DNA from: Candidatus Latescibacterota bacterium
Lineage (GTDB): Bacteria > Latescibacterota > UBA2968 > UBA8231
NCBI GenBank assembly: GCA_965203175.1
Contig: OZ241867.1
Coordinates: forward strand, 800,001 to 864,000
Length of the DNA: 64,000 nucleotides
Direction of reading: 5' to 3'
In this document: positions 2,913-49,987 of the stretch, one piece after another
How positions within the stretch are numbered: the stretch's first letter is position 1
How the letters are laid out: every line of letters begins with the position of its first letter
Program-made: the position numbers and the translations under genes
Notes under the pieces: model-generated
The model's database searches: none
Seen by the model: only the letters and a program-made list of their open reading frames with translations
What the model was told of the DNA's origin: nothing

Positions 2913-5900
2913 TCACCGTTCGTATTCATTCAGATCTGTGCGAATAGCGTAACTTTTTTCAAGACACATCTGATCTATCAGATCAAGGCATTTAGCTGCC
3001 CATTCATCACTTTGATGTTGGTGGTATGTTCGTAAAATCAACTTTGACACCATCGGAACATCACCTGCCCGACTCGTACGCATATCATTCGCCTCTTCGA
3101 TAAACCGTTCGAGAAATTTTTTACATACAATATACGTAATGCCAGGTAATCGGTAAGAAGATTCCTCAAGAAGGTGAAGTAAGGAAAACGAGTTTTCTTG
3201 ATAGGCTGCACTATCGCAAAACTTGACTATCAGATTCTCGTAGAATTCTAGAGGTTGTTTTTCCAAATTTCGGAAGCACTCTGCAGCTTTTCGACGAACC
3301 TCAATATCATCGTCATCAAAAAACAGCAGAAGTTTTTGCCCTGACCATTGCCGGTACTCCTCTTGGCCGATGTTGGCAGATGCCACTTGAGCCACCCCTA
3401 CTCTCTGTGACGAGTTGCCACGGAGTGCTTCTTCCACAAGATCCTCGGCATCGTCGCGCTGAAGGAGCAAAGCAATGCTCACCAATCGAGCACCTCCCTC
3501 ACTTGCTTCAGGAAGATTTGATCGAAGCATTCTCTCTATGACGGTTCTAAGGTCTTCGAAGTGCTCGTGCAGGCCGTAACGAATAAAATGCCCTATGTAT
3601 GGGGTTGTCAGTAAACGGTCGTCGCTATGTTGGTTGTCCCGAGATTCGATGAGACTGAGAAACTGCCTTAAAGCAAATCTCGATTCCTGACCGAGAATAG
3701 CTAAAAGAATAGAACTTGTACAAGCCCGAACGGCCAAACTGTTGTCGTTGACCAACTGGTCAATAGTAGGACGAAAGCGATCGATGTATGATCTATTTCG
3801 TTGTATAAGATTACGAATGGCCTCAGCAGCGTGGCCACGTGTTGTATTGATACCATGTGTAAGAATATCACCTCCTCCGCTCGTGGCTTCTTCACTCCAC
3901 AACTCTTTATCCGGATCCGAATTGGTTGCCAGCCAGTCGAGCATCTGCACAGCATCATCGGGAAGTGGTTCTTCAATTAATCCCAATAGGTCTGTAATCG
4001 CTTTCCCACAACTATCGCGGTATTCATTATACGCCTTGCGACACACTTCTAATTTGAGTTCGATAGAGCACTCTGTCTCTTTCAGACCATTGAGGGTATG
4101 CTCTATGTAGGAGGGATGGGTACCCAACGGAAATCTAAGGCTCAAGCGGGCAAATCTTTCCGGCTCTTGCTTCACGAACTCCTGTAACATCTGGGCAAGC
4201 TCCGGCGCTCCACCCTTTTCAGGATTCTCCCAAAGGTATTTTCTCTCTTCTGAATCATATTCTTGGATTGCTCTTAGCCATTGCTCATCTGTCATTCTCT
4301 CTGCGGCTATCTTTTCAATTGGGGAGCCTACTTGATACACTTCTAATCTTCGCGGAGAGGAATCTGGTGATCTAAATTTTCGTTCAAGTTCCATATAACG
4401 GCTCTGAGCATTCCTGCTCCTCAATTCAACTGGAATGCTAGACAGTAGATTAAAACAGGCATGTCCTCTCCGCTTGTACCCTTCAGGAGTGCGCTCCCAA
4501 GGTGAGATGTAATCCAGAATAGCCTTTTCGAGCTTTGTACAGTTCTCACCGGAACAAAGCGGAGTAGCTGCTTCTATTAATTGCATCGCTATCCAATAAG
4601 GGTTATCGGAGTATCCGCATTGAAATCGCCAAGTCTTGTCGCATAGGTCGGACACAGCTTCATTGGCAAAGTGCTTAGCACCTACTGTATAAGCACGAAG
4701 CAGGAGAAAATTTGCTAGATAGGTATCACGGCTACGTAGCTCTGCAAGAATCTTGCCAATACTATCTGACCTAGTCTCGGCTAGCTTCTCTACTGCTATA
4801 GCGGCTACATCCCTGCATGTTCCACGGATTGAAACACTTTCGCCGTTAATCAAGTGCCCCCAAACAGCATCCCGCTTGGGGACGGTGGAATTTTCCCTAT
4901 AGACGGCTTCATCAGCAATTTTTAGAATTACAGGTAGGACATGCTGTGCAAACTCTTCAGGAGCCTTGATTGCAGAGTCGTGTATAAGTTTTGGTCCAAA
5001 ACCGTCATGGTTGAACAGATCATTCCAGTTAGGTTCACCTGTACCATCCTGAGCCGCTCGAATAACGGAAAGACATCTTTGTAGCCAATGAGCAGTTACT
5101 TCGACAATCCAATCAGGACGTGTCTTATCGAGTCCATACATCATGCTCCAAAACGTGCTATTGACTGCGATCGGTCCAACTGCATTGTCCAAAGTTCCAT
5201 CGTCAATCAGATTCAAAAATAAATCAAAGAACCTTCGACTATTTTCAAGAGTAGCCCATTGCATAACGTAACTTAACCGCTGAGGCCATTCGCCTCCTTT
5301 TCCTACGAATGGCTCAAGGAGTTCAGCGACTCTGTCCCCTGAGTGTTCCTGATGAAATCGAGTATAGTTCACTCCCATGTTGACTAGACCGTTGTTCTCG
5401 GATGTAAGCCAATCTACAATCAGACCTTTTTCATCCGTAATCTGAAACCAATTCTGAGACATATGAAAACGGTTCCAAACCAAAGACGCGAATTTGTCTG
5501 TATTTGGTCTGTTGCTCTTAATTGCCTCAAGTTCAGATTCGATCCATGGTGAAATTACGTTCCATTCACCTTCTTCTGGATTAGGCATCGAAAAGGCGAG
5601 AGCAATGGCAAGGTCCTTCAAATGGTACCTAATCCTTTCGTCTCTCAATAATCCACTGAGTTCTCTACAATACCACCCTCGATCAGCATCACTAAGATAA
5701 ACGAGGACTTGCCGCACCTGTGCTCTGCGAAATAGATGTTGTTCTGATGGCACAAGGAATGACACCAATGAATCTCCCCTTGCCATGAAGGCGCGGGCGA
5801 AGCAGTAATCGAAAAAAGTCTCATGGCCGAATCCATAACTCCTTCCATCAAACGAAAGCACTCCCTCTGACGCCATCTGGACAAGACAATCATTCGGGAA

Positions 5901-7460
5901 CTGGTCTAGTTTCTCTTTCGGAACTGAAAGCCGTTGGGATTCAGTCATTGCGTCGCACAAAACCTGGATTATGTTGGCCCAATTATCAGAGGAGAAAGCA
6001 GTGCGCTCATTGACTGCATTGCGTTTCTCATCCCAGTAAAGATCAAACAGGTCCTTTTCCGAGAAGAACTCAGGCTGTGAATCGGAGTTATAATTGGCGT
6101 CAAGGAACAGCGACAGATTCTGAGGAAGGCATAGCAATTCTAATTGCTTTGCATCAAACAGATCAGTGTTGAAGCTACCACCCCCAAGCGAGGATTTCAC
6201 CTCGTCCAAAGAGAAGTCCGTGACTGAGATTTTGGCGTCAACCTTAGCGAGAAGGCGACGCAAACGATGATCGTTCTCCCAATCAAATTCTCTACAAACA
6301 ACCACTATATGTAATTTTACTCTTTCACGTAAACCTCGTACCTCTTTCAAAAGGTCTTCCACGACATCAAAGAAGTCTGAACTGCGGCCAGAAGTCGTAC
6401 TAACGGCATCAAGCTGGTCAATAATGAGCACCGCTTCACCTGATGTGGCTTTAGCTGCTGCCTCCAATACTAGGGCTGGCGATTCCTCTAATTCAAGACT
6501 TTCCCCCAACTTTTTAGTGGACGATACCGGGTCTATTCTATCTAATCGAAAAGCGAGTACCGCAACAGGATCATTGCTTTGATGAAGAGCCTCCACGCAT
6601 TCGATGACACACCCGGTCTTTCCACCACCTGCCTTGCCGGTTACAACGCAGTCGCTGCCTCTAGGGACAGGGCCTTTGATCTTTTCAAGAAGCTCCTTAG
6701 TCGATGAACGAGGAATGAGGGAGTCTTGAATCAGCCTTCGTTTTGTGCTGTCAAGATAGCGACCTGTTGCTTCAGAGATAAGCGAGAGGGCATCACTTGG
6801 TCTGGTAAGTCGCCGCAATGAGAAGCCCTTGTCCGAAAGGTATGAAATCAGATCATCCCAGTTGATGCACTTATGAATTGAGTCTTCAGCAAAATTACGG
6901 AGAAAGTCACAGACTTCCGGACTACTAAGAAACCGCGCTTGCAGCAACTCTCGCACTTTATCTTCAAGCTCTCGTTCATCGATTGTGCTGACCTCTATGC
7001 GATGAAGTAATTTATATGCCGTGGCTGTGTCAGTTTCCCAAATACCTTTGAGTCTTTCGAGGGCTTCCTTTTGAGTCTGAGCATCAACAAACACTGACTC
7101 AAATTCCTTCTGATTCTTTGAATCAATAGCCCGCTCCGTTAGCACTTTTAGCTCTGGAGCGTCACTACCTGAAGCAAAAACGAATCGTGTGTTTTCGCTT
7201 GCAGAAAGCTGCTCAAACATCACCTGTAGTATGCTCCGAAGATCAGATAGATTCCACTTGCCTTCTGGATGACTGCGCTTTGCCTGATGTAGCTCTCGAC
7301 AGTCTCCTACAGCGACCACAAATTCGGCTTTATCGAAATTCGGATCCTCAATTCGTATACTGTCGGCCTCTTTATCGATAATCCGTACTAACTGACGGAT
7401 CGTCCACCACGATTCGTAGCGATTTCCCAGCTTGTTAGCGGGACCACCAGGCAACGGCAC
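2913..7460 (-). CDS. Avs/NACHT-like STAND NTPase with N-terminal PD-(D/E)XK-like nuclease and long C-terminal helical sensor region (putative antiphage protein)
   Basis: N-terminal GNRYE...E..D..EF...HQAK (restriction-endonuclease-like QxK); Walker A GKAGGGKT; Walker B VLIIDQLDAVS; LLCLPQNLSLF and FGHETFFDY post-NTPase motifs; ~900-aa helical C-terminus; AT-richer than flanking genes. Confidence 0.75.
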   Translation of the reverse strand: MPLPGGPANKLGNRYESWWTIRQLVRIIDKEADSIRIEDPNFDKAEFVVAVGDCRELHQAKRSHPEGKWNLSDLRSILQVMFEQLSASENTRFVFASGSDAPELKVLTERAIDSKNQKEFESVFVDAQTQKEALERLKGIWETDTATAYKLLHRIEVSTIDERELEDKVRELLQARFLSSPEVCDFLRNFAEDSIHKCINWDDLISYLSDKGFSLRRLTRPSDALSLISEATGRYLDSTKRRLIQDSLIPRSSTKELLEKIKGPVPRGSDCVVTGKAGGGKTGCVIECVEALHQSNDPVAVLAFRLDRIDPVSSTKKLGESLELEESPALVLEAAAKATSGEAVLIIDQLDAVSTTSGRSSDFFDVVEDLLKEVRGLRERVKLHIVVVCREFDWENDHRLRRLLAKVDAKISVTDFSLDEVKSSLGGGSFNTDLFDAKQLELLCLPQNLSLFLDANYNSDSQPEFFSEKDLFDLYWDEKRNAVNERTAFSSDNWANIIQVLCDAMTESQRLSVPKEKLDQFPNDCLVQMASEGVLSFDGRSYGFGHETFFDYCFARAFMARGDSLVSFLVPSEQHLFRRAQVRQVLVYLSDADRGWYCRELSGLLRDERIRYHLKDLAIALAFSMPNPEEGEWNVISPWIESELEAIKSNRPNTDKFASLVWNRFHMSQNWFQITDEKGLIVDWLTSENNGLVNMGVNYTRFHQEHSGDRVAELLEPFVGKGGEWPQRLSYVMQWATLENSRRFFDLFLNLIDDGTLDNAVGPIAVNSTFWSMMYGLDKTRPDWIVEVTAHWLQRCLSVIRAAQDGTGEPNWNDLFNHDGFGPKLIHDSAIKAPEEFAQHVLPVILKIADEAVYRENSTVPKRDAVWGHLINGESVSIRGTCRDVAAIAVEKLAETRSDSIGKILAELRSRDTYLANFLLLRAYTVGAKHFANEAVSDLCDKTWRFQCGYSDNPYWIAMQLIEAATPLCSGENCTKLEKAILDYISPWERTPEGYKRRGHACFNLLSSIPVELRSRNAQSRYMELERKFRSPDSSPRRLEVYQVGSPIEKIAAERMTDEQWLRAIQEYDSEERKYLWENPEKGGAPELAQMLQEFVKQEPERFARLSLRFPLGTHPSYIEHTLNGLKETECSIELKLEVCRKAYNEYRDSCGKAITDLLGLIEEPLPDDAVQMLDWLATNSDPDKELWSEEATSGGGDILTHGINTTRGHAAEAIRNLIQRNRSYIDRFRPTIDQLVNDNSLAVRACTSSILLAILGQESRFALRQFLSLIESRDNQHSDDRLLTTPYIGHFIRYGLHEHFEDLRTVIERMLRSNLPEASEGGARLVSIALLLQRDDAEDLVEEALRGNSSQRVGVAQVASANIGQEEYRQWSGQKLLLFFDDDDIEVRRKAAECFRNLEKQPLEFYENLIVKFCDSAAYQENSFSLLHLLEESSYRLPGITYIVCKKFLERFIEEANDMRTSRAGDVPMVSKLILRTYHQHQSDEWAAKCLDLIDQMCLEKSYAIRTDLNEYER

Positions 7461-7527
7461 GGCTATTTCCTCCCTCGAATATCAGAGTGACAAAATTCCA
7501 CAGCATCAATTGATAACAGACGAAAGA

Positions 7528-7605
7528 CAAGTACGACCAGTCCAATTGTCGCCACAGTGTAGAGACAATCTCCCCATCCGAGAAACGGCCGGCAAAACGG
7601 ATCAT
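7528..7605 (-). pseudogene. DUF1016/YhcG N-terminal fragment containing imperfect palindrome P1 (7545-7569)
   Basis: Reads MIRFAGRFSDGEIVSTLWRQLDWSYL, resembling the DUF1016 M..FA..F.D..IV.TLS.QLSWSH segment. Confidence 0.65.
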
Positions 7606-7648
7606 CTACTTGTCCGTTTCTGACTTTCTTTGCAGTCGCACAACCGCC

Positions 7649-7893
7649 TCACGGGACGCGACAATCCGCACGAACTTGGGCTACTGCTTCGTCAACAAGG
7701 GCTTGGGCTTCCTCAGCCGAGAGGTGTTTGTTGCGTTCCCAAATGGAGTCAACGGTCTCCCAAAAGATCGCTTGGCGGACCGCACGGACGACGAAACGCG
7801 ATAGGTCGCCCCTTTTCCCACCCGTTCGGGCCAAATAGCTCCGAACGGTGCGGTCCCCGTATCTTCCGAGACGACGATGCTCCAACGGGTCAT
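7649..7893 (-). pseudogene. Ribbon-helix-helix protein (XACb0070-like antitoxin family), frameshifted
   Basis: MTRWSIVVSEDT (ATG 7893) continues as DRTVRSYLARTGGKRGDLSRFV...EEAQALVDEAVAQVR in another frame; shift at the G4 run (cccc 7855-7858); span is 245 nt = 3n+2. Confidence 0.75.
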
Positions 7894-7943
7894 CAATAGC
7901 CTCTCTTCGAGTTTTGCAGTCAAGTACGGCCAGCCCAATTGTC
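7865..7943. repeat. 79-bp direct repeat, copy 1 (RHH 5' end, upstream spacer and palindrome arm)
   Basis: 6 mismatches versus 8163-8241. Confidence 0.9.
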
Positions 7944-8073
7944 GCGACACTGTCGCGACAATATCAGCTTCGCGGAATGCCTTGGCAAAATTTATCATCC
8001 GAGTGAGAGCCGAATAGCTGTAACCTCGCCCAAATTAGGCAGTCAATTGTTGCGACAGTGTCGCAACAATCTC
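7921..8073 (-). pseudogene. DUF1016/YhcG N-terminal fragment with in-frame stop; contains palindromes P2 (7938-7962) and P3 (8046-8070)
   Basis: EIVATLSQQLTA*FGRGYSYSALTRMINFAKAFREADIVATVSRQLGWPYL; TAA at 8035-8037. Confidence 0.8.
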
Positions 8074-23210: not shown

Positions 23211-24182
23211 TCAGTTGTCCCACGTCAATAATACCGCCATCGTCTCGCCCAACCGATTGTAGAGCAAATCGAAGGCCGCTGCCGCTTCGGTGTAGGGGAA
23301 GCGGTGAGTGATCATCTTGGCGAACTGGATCTGGTCTGTAGCCAGCAACTCTAACGTACGCGCCGATCCTTCGGGCCGCCGACTAGCGTCGAGATAGCTG
23401 CCTATGAGGCGCTTGCCCATGATTTTTTCTGAATAGAGCGGCAGAGGTTCGTTCTCGTACAGGCCCAGCACCTGCAAGAGGCCGCCGCTCTTGAGCATGT
23501 CCTGCGCCTCGGCAAAAGCCTGTGCCCCAGCCCGCCCGCCCACGGCTTCGACCACGATGTCGGCACCCTTCCCGTCCGTCAGCTCCAAGACCTGTGCGAC
23601 CGGATCGCCAGCGCTGGCGTCAATCATCTCGTCAACCCCCAACTCGCGCGCCAGTTCACAGCGCAAGGGCAAAGTGTCAATCCCAATGACGCGCCCCGCG
23701 CCCTGTGCCTTGGCCGCCTGCATACAACCGCTGCCGACCAAGCCCTGCCCCTGTATGACCATGACATCGTCCGGGCCGGCCCCGGTCTCCCACATCCACA
23801 GGACCGAACTGGTTCCCAGCGGCCAAAAGGTGCCCGCCTCGGGCGACAGGCCCGCGGGCAGGCGCACGGCCGCAGGCTGGTGCCGGCTGGCTCCGACTTC
23901 GACCGCCACGTATTCGGCGTGCGGCGCAAGCGCCGCGACCAAGTCTCCGACTTTGAACTCCTCGACCTCTGCACCCACCTCTGCGACTCGGCCCACCAGC
24001 GAGTAGCCCATGGAGCGGTGGTCGATAGCCTCTTCGCGCACGTAGCGCCGCCAAATCTCCGAGCCTCGGCTGATCAGCGAACATTCGGCGCGAATCAAAA
24101 TCTCGGTCGAGGCAATGGCCGGGGTCTCGACCTCTTCTACTACGATATTATAGGCCCCTGCGGGCTTGGCGATGCGTTTCAT
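23211..24182 (-). CDS. MDR-superfamily (zinc-binding type) dehydrogenase
   Basis: SLISRGSE, MGYSLVG, GQGLVG, DIVVEAVG, ITHRF; start MKRIAK at 24182 after GAGG. Confidence 0.85.
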   Translation of the reverse strand: MKRIAKPAGAYNIVVEEVETPAIASTEILIRAECSLISRGSEIWRRYVREEAIDHRSMGYSLVGRVAEVGAEVEEFKVGDLVAALAPHAEYVAVEVGASRHQPAAVRLPAGLSPEAGTFWPLGTSSVLWMWETGAGPDDVMVIQGQGLVGSGCMQAAKAQGAGRVIGIDTLPLRCELARELGVDEMIDASAGDPVAQVLELTDGKGADIVVEAVGGRAGAQAFAEAQDMLKSGGLLQVLGLYENEPLPLYSEKIMGKRLIGSYLDASRRPEGSARTLELLATDQIQFAKMITHRFPYTEAAAAFDLLYNRLGETMAVLLTWDN

Positions 24183-24248
24183 AGACGGCCTCCTCGCGGA
24201 CAATATGGCAAAAATACCGCGCGTGAACCAACCTAGTTCAACGCGGGC

Positions 24249-24287
24249 AAAAAAAACCGGGCGCACCCTAAGGTGGGGTGCGCCCGG
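24249..24287 (-). terminator. Rho-independent terminator
   Basis: 12-bp stem ccgggcgcaccc/gggtgcgcccgg followed by T8 on the minus strand. Confidence 0.9.
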
Positions 24288-24550
24288 CTGTACTCTCAGA
24301 AGCTATGCCGCCGAGGCGACTGTGCTTCTGACCAGGTAGTCGATCACCTGGAGTTGATCAAGTGATCAACCTCCCTGCGGTACGTTTACTACTCAATGGA
24401 CCACCTCCTTTCGCTGTGCGCGCCTCATATCCATACTCCAACTCTGCGCGTCGTTGCGGCCAATTGCAAAGTCGGGTTGGCCCGCTCGCGTAGCCTCGAG
24501 CCTCAGCATAGCGGCAACAGGGGTTTGAGGCCCCCGAACTCGACTCGATT
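24250..24550 (-). other. Candidate stand-alone small transcript with three chained micro-ORFs (24358-24396, 24344-24361, 24303-24347)
   Basis: Bounded by a TTGACA promoter and a strong terminator; SD GAAAGGAGGTGGTCC precedes TTG-SSKRTAGRLIT; TTGA and GTGA stop/start overlaps. Confidence 0.5.
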
Positions 24551-24552
24551 TT

Positions 24553-24582
24553 AATATGACAAACGCCACAGAACCATGTCAA
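24553..24582 (-). promoter_or_regulatory. Putative sigma-70 promoter for the small transcript
   Basis: TTGACA-18 nt-CATATT with a TG extended -10 dinucleotide; overlaps the stop of the Gfo/Idh/MocA gene. Confidence 0.55.
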
Positions 24583-25571
24583 ATGCTTTTTACTTTCACC
24601 GGCTGCCCGCTAGCGGCCGAGGCCCATGCCGCTTCGGTCAGTTCAATGACCCGCAGGCCGCATTCGGGGGGCACCTGCACCTGATCGCGGCCGAGAATCG
24701 CGTCGATGAAATTCTGGTCGGGCGTCGTCGAGCCGGGCAAGTTATTTACTTCGTACACCTCGTTGCTGTGCTGCGTCTTGTAAAAGATCTGTCCCCGGCG
24801 TATATAGACCGCGGCCTTGGTCCCCCAGATGGTGATGTCCTCCCATATCCCGCTGGCCGGCGAGTTGCCCACCACCGCAATCGTCCCCAGCGCGCCGTTG
24901 CCAAAGCGCAGCGACAGCGCCGAGTTGATGTCCACTTCGGAGTCTAAATACTCCATGTAGGCCTGCACTTCCGCCACCTCTAACCCGGTCATCCACAACA
25001 CAATGTCCAGTAGGTGGCTTCCCGAGTCGTTGAGCTGTCCGCCGCCCGACAGCGCCATTTGCTGCCGCCACAGTCCGATCGTCCCCTGGTACCACTTCTG
25101 GTCTTGGAGCGCCGATATAAATTGGATGTCCCCCAATTCCCCGGCCGCAATCTGGTTGCGCACATAGCGGTACTGCGCCTGCAAGTGCCGCTGATAGGAA
25201 ATCATTACGAGCTTGTCGGTCTCCTCGGCTTTGGCGATAACTTGGCGCGCGTGATCGACAGTACAGACCATCGGCTTTTCGGTCAGCACGTGCAGCCCTT
25301 TGTCCAGCGCGGCCATAATCTGCTCAAAGTGCAATGTGTGGGGCGTGGAAATTTCTACCGCATCCAGTTCGACTTGCTCCAGCATCTCTTGGTAGTGGGT
25401 AAACTCCGGCAACTCCGCGGCCTGCGAGTTGCGCTCTTTGGCTCGCTGCAGACTGGCCTGATCCACATCACACAACGCCACCACTTCGGCCTCGGGGATG
25501 TCGAGAACCCGCCCTAGGTGCCCGCTGGCATTTCCACCACAGCCGATAAATCCCACGCGAATCTTGTCCAT
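24579..25571 (-). CDS. Gfo/Idh/MocA family oxidoreductase
   Basis: GFIGCGG, STPHTLH, HVLTEKP, GGGQLNDSGSH. Confidence 0.92.
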   Translation of the reverse strand: MDKIRVGFIGCGGNASGHLGRVLDIPEAEVVALCDVDQASLQRAKERNSQAAELPEFTHYQEMLEQVELDAVEISTPHTLHFEQIMAALDKGLHVLTEKPMVCTVDHARQVIAKAEETDKLVMISYQRHLQAQYRYVRNQIAAGELGDIQFISALQDQKWYQGTIGLWRQQMALSGGGQLNDSGSHLLDIVLWMTGLEVAEVQAYMEYLDSEVDINSALSLRFGNGALGTIAVVGNSPASGIWEDITIWGTKAAVYIRRGQIFYKTQHSNEVYEVNNLPGSTTPDQNFIDAILGRDQVQVPPECGLRVIELTEAAWASAASGQPVKVKSI

Positions 25572-49628: not shown

Positions 49629-49987
49629 GGGGGCGACTTGGCTTCGACGGGGTCGGAGAAGCCCAAATTGCGTGCCGAGGTCCCGACACCTCGTAAATCC
49701 TCGGGAAACAATTAAGCGACGAAACTAACACGTACGCTCTGGCTGCCTAAATTTAGCGCAGCCCATTGGGGTCTGTTGAGCCTGCGCGGCAGGCCCCAAT
49801 GTCAACTCTTAGCAGGCTGGTCCCAAACTTTCGCCCGAGGGAATGGGACGAGATTTTTCGGGCTGGCTCGTTGCGAGGCCCGTTGGCCGGCAGCGCAACA
49901 GGCAAGATAACTAAGGCCGACTACGCACGTAGTATATTTCGGTAGAACCGGTCTCGGACGCGGGTTCGATTCCCGCCGCCTCCACCA
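49629..49987 (+). ncRNA. ssrA: tmRNA; tag reading frame 49718-49750, (A)DETNTYALAA*
   Basis: 5' GGGGGCGA..GGCTTCGACG; 3' T-arm GCGGGTTCGATTCCCGC and acceptor end CGCCTCCACCA; tag ends YALAA. Confidence 0.97.

Follow-up and report, generated by a model that had tools for sequence, protein, structure and literature searches.

A putative rre-like small mRNA gene with a full-length complement of the 16S rRNA tail in a Latescibacterota genome

We describe here a small locus on the minus strand of a 64,000-nucleotide (nt) stretch (hereafter the window) of a Candidatus Latescibacterota genome (GenBank assembly GCA_965203175.1, contig OZ241867.1, positions 800,001 to 864,000), which lies between window positions 24249 and 24582 and probably encodes an RNA of about 300 nt whose fate would be tied to its engagement by ribosomes. 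The element sits in an intergenic gap of ~400 nt, bordered upstream by the stop codon of a GFO/IDH/MocA-type oxidoreductase gene (24579-25571) and downstream by a Zn-dependent-dehydrogenase-like gene (23211-24182, ATG at 24182), whose operon continues beyond. The following features can be assigned to it, SD standing for Shine-Dalgarno sequence and ORF for open reading frame:

24553 to 24582, minus strand: sigma-70-type promoter, with TTGACA (24582-24577), an 18-nt spacer, CATATT (24558-24553) and an upstream TG-n; 10/12 hexamer matches.
24249 to 24546, minus strand: predicted transcript of ~298 nt, its start placed from the -10 box and its end from the terminator T-run.
24413 to 24546, minus strand: structured 5' domain of ~135 nt, conserved in genera g1 and g16.
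24397 to 24412, minus strand: SD1, GAAAGGAGGTGGTCCA, a 16-nt complement of the 16S rRNA 3' tail with one G.U pair, assigned by duplex energy and a genome-wide 15-mer scan.
24358 to 24396, minus strand: ORF1, MSSKRTAGRLIT, with a TTG start, 12 codons and a TGA stop, assigned by frame conservation.
24369 to 24375, minus strand: SD2, GGGAGGT, inside ORF1 and 8 nt before its stop, assigned by comparison with class members.
24332 to 24375, minus strand: long hairpin of the alignment fold, in which SD2 and segment c (GATCACTTG, 24367-24359) pair with segments d (CAGGTGATC, 24350-24342) and e (GACTACCTGG, 24341-24332).
24297 to 24330, minus strand: variable hairpin P4, present in most genera with differing sequences.
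24249 to 24289, minus strand: intrinsic terminator, CCGGGCGC...GCGCCCGG followed by a T-run, with a stem (24289-24255) of 14 pairs, 11 of them G-C.

The view that this locus is an independent small gene, that is, a discrete and self-contained transcription unit with its own promoter and terminator, is supported on several counts. A consensus scan of 23900-24900 returned one promoter-like and one terminator-like site, the former against 0.3 expected in shuffled sequence, which bears out the TTGACA promoter of an initial annotation made from the letters alone; the 14-pair, G-C-rich stem and its T-run likewise agree with the strong terminator proposed there. In 38 distinct related sequences, a TTGAC-N16-20-(C/T)ATATT-like site recurs at a distance of 120-190 nt ahead of SD1. 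The ~298-nt RNA folds more stably than 200/200 of its shuffles (z = -4.71), in keeping with the foldable 5' part that had been noticed, but neither of the two pairings named for that part is upheld: for ggcctca with tgaggct, many members of the genus read GGCCAC at the first arm whilst the partner is invariant, and gagtcgagtt with aacccgactt is not in the consensus fold, where RNAalifold instead pairs ACCCGACTTTGC with GCAGAGTTGG.

SD1 is the feature on which most of the argument turns. The genome (G000, 6.58 Mb) has a single 16S rRNA gene (303605-305161, minus strand), and the 3' end of its 16S rRNA reads ...GGCTGGATCACCTCCTTTCT. Against this tail, GAAAGGAGGTGGTCC (24412-24398) forms 14/15 Watson-Crick pairs and one G.U, and a 16th pair is made through A24397, such that SD1 faces 16 consecutive nucleotides of its own 16S tail with 15 Watson-Crick pairs and one G.U; the 14/15 complement first read against the canonical tail is therefore confirmed, and slightly extended, with the organism's own 16S rRNA. 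The computed SD1:16S duplex has an energy of -30.0 kcal/mol, compared with -15.2 kcal/mol for the SD of the downstream dehydrogenase gene, and when the genome is scanned for 15-mers that differ at no more than two positions, SD1 alone outside the rRNA has just one mismatch. The match of SD1 to the 16S tail is beyond chance. It is also conserved, GAAAGGAGGTGGTC being invariant in the family-level alignment bar one GGAAGG. SD1 reads GGTGGTC, with its G.U to 16S, and not the perfect GGTGATC, in nearly all Latescibacterota elements, and the same form appears in the consensus of the actinobacterial RNA Ms_IGR-5 and in many planctomycete matches; one possibility is that a cis ACCGCC-like element is perhaps paired more strongly than the ribosome. 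Elsewhere in the same genome, at ~1130209 of contig C1 (minus strand) and hence outside the window, a 13-nt extended SD (AGAAAGGAGGTGG) is followed by an ATG, a 14-codon frame and then a hairpin, and a further AGAAAGGAGGTG site lies at ~4732687 (minus strand).

At least 13 genera keep ORF1, immediately behind SD1, as a reading frame. We scored for start codons 50 distinct matches, drawn from the genome collection, to a pattern composed of SD1, an internal GAGGT and a stop: 42 of them have an in-frame start 2-11 nt after GGTGGT with no internal stop (one of these, L123, with its start at 11 nt, is doubtful), and the eight without a start codon all come from records titled as other phyla. ORF lengths of 9, 10, 11, 12, 13 and 18 codons occur among the pattern matches, with the frame kept at every length change. 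Within Latescibacterota, the length is 9-13 codons and the frame is conserved in 32/32 distinct strings, which start with TTG (25), GTG (4) or ATG (3); the frame is likewise kept in genera retrieved with a pattern that lacked the stop, one of which, G072, has TAG for TGA. The start lies 2-7 nt after GGTGGT in other genera, and at the window the TTG begins at 24396, directly after A24397. The internal SD is similarly recurrent: among 11 further class members that were retrieved by SD1 and start alone, GGAGGT stands 8-9 nt before the stop in nine, and a degenerate purine run takes its place in two. This hexamer occupies differing codon phases, GGG AGG T.. in g1 and GGA GGT in g22 and in the type B element described below, and such phase shifts between genera imply a sequence constrained mainly as RNA, for which translation to a fixed end-point is also required.

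The two further micro-ORFs that the initial annotation had chained to ORF1 fare differently. Outside the closest genera neither ORF2 nor ORF3 is conserved, and both were rejected as genes: the ORF2 start overlaps the ORF1 stop (TTGA) in 25/46 distinct sequences and reads CTGA in the other 21/46, whilst ORF3 ranges in length between 6 and over 40 codons and overlies a hairpin with indels that are not multiples of three. Between relatives, it is thus the SD and ORF1 that are kept, and not the overlap pattern. Nor is the C-terminus of ORF3 conserved; its final AA, which had been likened to the ssrA degron, occurs in few sequences (e.g. the window, L096 and L125), most ending ...SAT.

Downstream of SD1 the RNA has two helices that are well supported in the consensus fold of alignment A2 (33 sequences), namely the long hairpin and the terminator. 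Together they are paired in 96.7% of cells, compared with 36-47% in slid controls, and they hold 12 pairs with changes on both sides, three in the long hairpin and nine in the terminator, values that 0/500 shuffles reach. Taken singly, the long hairpin is paired in 95.5% of cells, with two-sided changes at 59:96, 60:95 and 62:93, and the terminator helix in 98.2%, with such changes at 9/12 pairs. The consensus segments of the long hairpin are GATCACYTG for c, CAGGTGATC for d and GACYACCTGG for e, with the ORF1 stop at the loop; SD2 therefore lies within a covarying hairpin. In 12 representatives, the long hairpin has a predicted energy of -19 to -29 kcal/mol and an alternative d:e hairpin one of -3 to -14 kcal/mol, and genus g16 has the two-hairpin form as its fold of lowest energy; d:e was assessed by per-sequence folding, as at least six A2 rows are shifted by one column there. 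In the full-length RNAs of 12 representatives, the predicted unpaired probability is 0.33-0.99 for the 5' half of SD1 and 0.02-0.39 for its 3' half, and RNAalifold pairs an upstream [G/A]CCGC[C/T] with GGUGGU, the 3' half of SD1, with no compensatory changes. P4 is absent in g6, g20 and L083, and its indels are not multiples of three.

How widely is this architecture distributed? A 418-nt query with the element found it as a single copy in 24/41 relatives searched (the source genome included); 23/24 genomes of the genus carry it at 79-94% identity, and BLAST places it in 50/76 genomes and 10/18 genera of the family. Only the core made up of SD1, ORF1 and the following hairpin survives between genera (query 121-215, window ~24426-24332), whilst the 5' domain of other genera has a different sequence and a similar length (120-175 nt). 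Carrier records are mostly titled as 'Candidatus Latescibacterota' metagenome-assembled genomes (MAGs), with a few titled Gemmatimonadota, KSB1 or Handelsmanbacteria. Across the phylum, the pattern of SD1, internal GAGGT and stop was found in 50/168 genomes (family 48/75, f4 1/22, elsewhere 0), with 0 matches in the reversed control. The looser pattern of GAAAGGAGGTGRTC with a start codon within 8 nt occurs in 119/168 (f1 63/75, f2 31/31, f4 21/22, other families 3/39), with 4 control matches. Families f2 and f4, which belong to the same class, carry a type B element (L148-L160, L168), in which a promoter and a ~10-nt leader precede GAAAGGAGGTGGTC and an ORF of 11 codons, M[ST][DE]MTSGGGC[SR], which ends in TAG and has GGAGGT 9 nt before that stop. 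With its short 5' untranslated region and long 3' structured domain, type B is the reverse of the layout seen in the window, and one genome, G130, carries both type-A-like and type-B elements. In the type B loci that were printed, GTG or ATG stands directly after the TAG, and the frame behind it looks unconserved by eye.

Beyond the phylum, six matches titled Rhodobacterales, Gemmobacter etc. (one Limisphaerales, one Proteobacteria) have 18 codons and a GTG start; three titled Pirellulales or Planctomycetales encode M[CS]..NQRWLA with the same layout, and one KSB1-titled and one alphaproteobacterial MAG match encode MSSWPRRS.., again with the same layout. At 12 loci from other phyla, no Rfam family matched at gathering score. 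An order-wide scan of Pirellulales matched 64/121 genomes, but the reversed control matched ~24 genomes, the 13-nt pattern being too loose to describe a distribution. Some observations may nonetheless be recorded for this group: in planctomycete-titled L112, L114 and L118 (also e.g. L178-L182), a small ORF behind GAAGGAGGTGGTC reads M[CS]..NQRWLA and TGA, with a hairpin spanning the stop and then a terminator behind it, and GAAGGAGGTGGTCCCTATATG is found in many Pirellulales genomes.

Sequencing runs containing the stretch are labelled as sponge, coral-reef, marine and biofilm metagenomes, and six of them are RNA libraries. Contigs of four metatranscriptomes, from four studies, were placed on 23700-25100, and contigs lie on 24264-24527 in 4/4 of them, including in X18 a single 259-nt contig across 24272-24527. 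RNA of the element exists in RNA libraries, and alongside the promoter and terminator this bears out the self-contained transcript of ~300 nt. No RNA-run contig falls on 24546-24686 in the four runs, which is not evidence, but is consistent with the predicted ends. The summed contig depth in the element is orders of magnitude above that of the flanks and highest over the 5' domain; in X19, it amounts to 352,006-505,694 over the 5' domain, compared with 56,433 and 3,452-7,970 over the ORF part, and drops from 3,452 to 17 across the terminator, all of these being contig values, whose depths and gaps cannot rank or delimit transcripts.

A precedent for such a layout comes from Alphaproteobacteria, in the small mRNAs that have been named 'rre' for ribosome-regulated expression, and what follows on these draws on the available part of the report by Hahn et al. 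(2016, RNA Biol 14:1353, PMC5711450). The rreB gene of Bradyrhizobiaceae encodes a 165-nt mRNA with a 14-codon small ORF (sORF) and 17 nt that perfectly complement the 3' end of 16S rRNA; it co-sediments with the 30S subunit, is weakly translated and is stabilised by removal of its start codon, and its SD is predicted to be single-stranded at the 5' nucleotides only (PMC5711450). The extended SD depresses translation, overproduction of RreB has no growth effect, and the authors argue against simple ribosome sequestration (PMC5711450). The related rreR, with 18 codons and a GTG start, is found in Rhodobacterales, with analogues in Caulobacterales, Rhizobiales and Rhodospirillales, and the function of rre genes is described as elusive (PMC5711450).

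We favour, with moderate confidence and from sequence comparison, the reading that the window locus is an independent gene for a ~300-nt RNA of this kind, in which ribosome engagement would govern stability and processing. Its own promoter and terminator, its presence in RNA libraries, the pairing capacity of SD1, the conserved frame of 9-13 codons and the placement of SD2 in a covarying hairpin all argue for it. The initial annotation had offered, among other options, a ribosome-binding RNA or a micropeptide locus, and both ideas sit comfortably with a full-length anti-SD complement ahead of a conserved micro-ORF, features that match the rre small mRNAs. One could imagine the following sequence of events. 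The unpaired 5' half of SD1 (GAAAGGA) would act as a seed for the anti-SD of the 30S subunit, whilst the 3' half (GGUGGUC) would at first be held in cis by the upstream ACCGCC-like element or by the end of the ORF. Once the cis helix opens, the full 16-bp SD1:anti-SD duplex would anchor the 30S subunit very tightly, and an over-long SD combined with a weak UUG or GUG start would make for slow initiation and clearance, and for low translation, as measured for rreB. The translating ribosome could then melt the 5' arm of the long hairpin (SD2 and segment c) and, on arriving at the stop, would find SD2 5-6 nt from the P-site codon, which is an initiation spacing, and might be held there while d:e refolds. 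RNA processing and half-life would in that case depend on ribosome engagement, such that the RNA would report on this engagement or be controlled by it. The element is not a regulator of the neighbouring gene, and its useful part may be the peptide, the abundant 5' fragment or the bound 30S subunit.

Several points weigh against this interpretation. In X16, one 645-nt contig (23788-24429) runs across the terminator as far as the downstream gene, and some terminator read-through may occur. The 5' depth excess, if real, would mean that the cell contains mostly a 5' fragment that lacks the ORF. The helices proposed for SD1, whether its partner is the upstream ACCGCC, segment c or segment e, are invariant or show one-sided changes only, and covariation does not prove the switch model that the folds suggest. 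Within the genus, ORF1 is no more variable at third codon positions than at the first two, and the rare changes are non-synonymous (K/N/T, R/C); conservation of ORF1 is thus largely at the RNA level, and the peptide may be incidental. The one G.U in SD1 is a departure from the perfect complement of rreB and rreR, although the length of at least 16 nt of complementarity to its own 16S rRNA before an sORF is reached, and the complement ends at A24397 with the TTG from 24396, where in rre genes the last complementary nucleotide lies within the GTG start. Finally, the sequence features are observed, and binding to the 30S subunit, translation and the order in which these steps occur are inferred from them.

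Could the functional molecule instead be the abundant structured 5' domain, acting as a trans-acting or protein-binding small RNA (sRNA) of ~120-150 nt, with SD1, ORF1 and the hairpin as only a ribosome-dependent maturation or turnover device, or as a leftover? In 3/4 RNA runs (X15, X16 and X19), contigs over 24405-24498 sum to a depth 10-100 times greater than over the ORF part, though contig depths cannot rank parts of a gene. X16 and X19 also share adaptor-bearing contig ends at 24397 and 24430, positions that coincide with SD1 or lie just ahead of it, a weak hint of a stable 5' fragment ending at SD1. The 5' domain also holds a hairpin with compensatory changes, the paired A3 columns 49-54:67-72 having changes on both sides. 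Set against this, family-wide conservation is confined to the core of SD1, ORF and hairpin, the 5' domain differing in sequence between genera, and the sister type in f2 and f4 has almost no 5' leader; we consider this explanation unlikely.

A micropeptide gene, in which the 12-amino-acid MSSKRTAGRLIT would be the functional entity and the long SD its expression device, would account for the conserved frame, start and stop, for a serine at position 2 that is kept through different codon families (AGT, AGC, TCT), and for a C-terminal R-x-x-[TA] pattern that recurs across lineages. That pattern coincides with SD2 and the hairpin arm, where the differing codon phases of GGAGGT point to RNA-level constraint, and the N-terminal half varies freely; considering in addition that, in the available part of Hahn et al. 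(PMC5711450), an extended SD lowers translation and RreB overproduction leaves growth unaffected, this seems to us distinctly unlikely. Similarly improbable is an untranslated sponge or decoy, which would titrate free 30S subunits or the 3' tail of 16S rRNA, with ORF1 incidental. The extreme strength of the computed SD1 duplex, the presence of three SD-like and two anti-SD-like segments, and the high contig depths in RNA runs would suit such a role, but a frame that survives at least five length classes and exchanges of its start and stop codons would not be expected of an untranslated RNA, and for rreB overexpression had no growth effect and its authors argue against simple sequestration (available part of PMC5711450).

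As for the genomic context, 10/32 loci examined (L114, L083, L079, L093, L109, L105, L117, L095, L120 and L130) have their nearest downstream ORF on the opposite strand, and the synteny of metG, the GFO oxidoreductase and the element is found only in g1, g16, g6 and g20, with neighbours changing between genera. A general role as leader or attenuator of a dehydrogenase operon is ruled out by these opposite-strand and changing downstream neighbours, and with it the translation-coupled attenuator of the downstream catabolic run that was suggested initially. Between the terminator and the dehydrogenase gene (24183-24248, minus strand), we noted a conserved TTGGTT ... TTTTTGCCATATTG motif (TGCAATATTG in genus g16); the TTGGTT...TGCCATATT motif, read by eye and not scored in the promoter scan, looks like the dehydrogenase gene's own extended -10 promoter. 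On the other strand, the plus-strand ORFs 24362-24493 and 24396-24554 were ruled out as genes by 1-nt indels in the genus alignment. A ribosome-dependent transcription attenuator (leader peptide and terminator) restricted to the downstream Zn-dependent dehydrogenase operon is very improbable, for while genera g1 and g16 have a co-oriented gene 67 nt past the T-run, predicted folds include alternative hairpins and one RNA-run contig bridges the terminator, the downstream ORFs elsewhere are unrelated as well as often inverted, no element was seen that competes with the 5' arm of the terminator, the promoter-like TTGGTT...TGCCATATT intervenes, and the leader codons hold no run of one amino acid.

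At gathering score, the only Rfam match in the whole window is tmRNA (transfer-messenger RNA), with no family at the element, a match to a described family being one of the outcomes that the initial annotation had named as refuting it. Relaxing the search of 24100-24700 to E values up to 10 gave weak matches only (P31, CC2171, Pseudomon-1 and others), on the terminator and SD1. The tmRNA of the genome is a one-piece gene (RF00023, 200.6 bits) at 49629-49987 on the plus strand, and a tmRNA/ssrA-like tagging RNA was rejected for our locus because nothing resembling a tRNA and tag is present at 24249-24582 and the true ssrA lies elsewhere. The 6S RNA model RF00013 has no match genome-wide at E up to 1, although it matches only 5/14 control genomes. 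The predicted fold of the element is multi-branched, not a rod with a central bubble, and 6S identity was set aside, with the caveat that the model is insensitive; if the genome has a 6S RNA, it goes unrecognised by this model. Literature searches returned no paper that describes such an element outside Alphaproteobacteria, none that links rre genes with CC2171 or Ms_IGR-5, and 0 papers on noncoding RNA in Latescibacteria.

In ribosome-dependent attenuators such as trpL, a translated leader ORF remodels alternative hairpins before an intrinsic terminator. Our element resembles these in its short ORF, here predicted to be translated, its alternative hairpins and its intrinsic terminator downstream, and differs in that no conserved downstream gene, no regulatory codon runs and no terminator-overlapping antiterminator were found.

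The closest known kind, as judged by sequence and layout, is that of the rreB/rreR small mRNAs. Both are short independent transcripts with their own promoter and terminator (predicted at the window locus, where RNA-run contigs agree), and both have 16-17 nt of 16S complementarity immediately before an sORF that is conserved, of 14 or 18 codons in rreB and rreR and of 9-13 codons in the window type. Both have a non-ATG start and an SD of which only the 5' part is predicted to be single-stranded, in both the genomic context is unconserved beyond close relatives, and the function is elusive. The 18-codon, GTG-initiated frames of the Rhodobacterales-titled matches above agree with what is described for rreR. 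The differences, again by the available part of PMC5711450, are that rreB and rreR are reported only in Alphaproteobacteria whereas ours lies in Latescibacterota; that the window element has a structured 5' domain of ~135 nt, whereas the whole of rreB measures 165 nt; that rreB stops are UAA or UAG, compared with UGA here (UAG in one genus); and that the window element has SD2 8-9 nt before the stop in an SD/anti-SD-like hairpin, an SD2 being unmentioned in that part of the paper.

Two Rfam families share some of these traits. CC2171 is a Caulobacter sRNA of unknown function, Northern-validated also in Methylorubrum according to the available part of a preprint (bioRxiv 10.1101/2022.01.24.477521); the consensus of its model, RF01867, starts with GAAAGGAGGUGAUCCAGUG, the same long SD and then GUG, and ends in a terminator. 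The window element is the best match to RF01867 in its genome, at 23.9 bits against a gathering score of 75 that it does not reach, and the match rests on SD1 and the terminator, the interior being unaligned. The actinobacterial sRNA Ms_IGR-5 is termed 'validated but uncharacterized' in the excerpts available (bioRxiv 10.1101/2021.12.14.472595, PMC8079986), and its RF02471 consensus begins with ACACAaGGAAGGAgGugGuC and has GAGGUGgCug shortly before UAG. Type B elements resemble it, L151 scoring 41.2 bits (E = 3e-8) and L150 28.2 bits, below the gathering score of 45, whilst the window element itself has no Ms_IGR-5 match at the locus at E up to 10.

What is new here, on present sequence comparisons, would be an RNA of the rre kind in Latescibacterota-titled genomes, an SD2 before the stop in a covarying hairpin and a structured 5' domain of ~135 nt, and the distribution suggests that the rre-like kind may be much more widespread than published. 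Small mRNAs with SDs of 16-17 nt have been described once, in Alphaproteobacteria, with their function elusive (available part of PMC5711450); the same design is maintained as a single copy, across nearly a whole class, in an uncultured lineage associated with sponges and reefs, and its RNA occurs in RNA libraries; similar designs occur in Planctomycetota- and KSB1-titled records, one of them resembling an actinobacterial sRNA. We tentatively posit, in the knowledge that the odds are against so broad a grouping, that the window RNA, type B, the planctomycete and KSB1 look-alikes, rreB/rreR/CC2171 and Ms_IGR-5 could form one cross-phylum class of 'double-SD' micro-ORF RNAs, in which a full anti-SD complement would capture the 30S subunit at the start and SD2, 8-10 nt before the stop, would re-capture the same ribosome, tethered to a track of ~40 nt. 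If so, would such an RNA be a sensor of free or competent 30S subunits? Or could it be a chaperone or gauge of the 16S 3' tail, for instance in final 3'-end maturation or hibernation? Perhaps its output is its own ribosome-dependent processing into a stable fragment. The shared architecture of a seed-accessible long SD, a weak start, a tiny ORF, an SD2 at initiation-like spacing and a stop in a hairpin is testable in culturable models such as Bradyrhizobium, Caulobacter and Mycobacterium smegmatis, and, if the class is real, it would stand for an old and widespread coupling of RNA fate to ribosome engagement.

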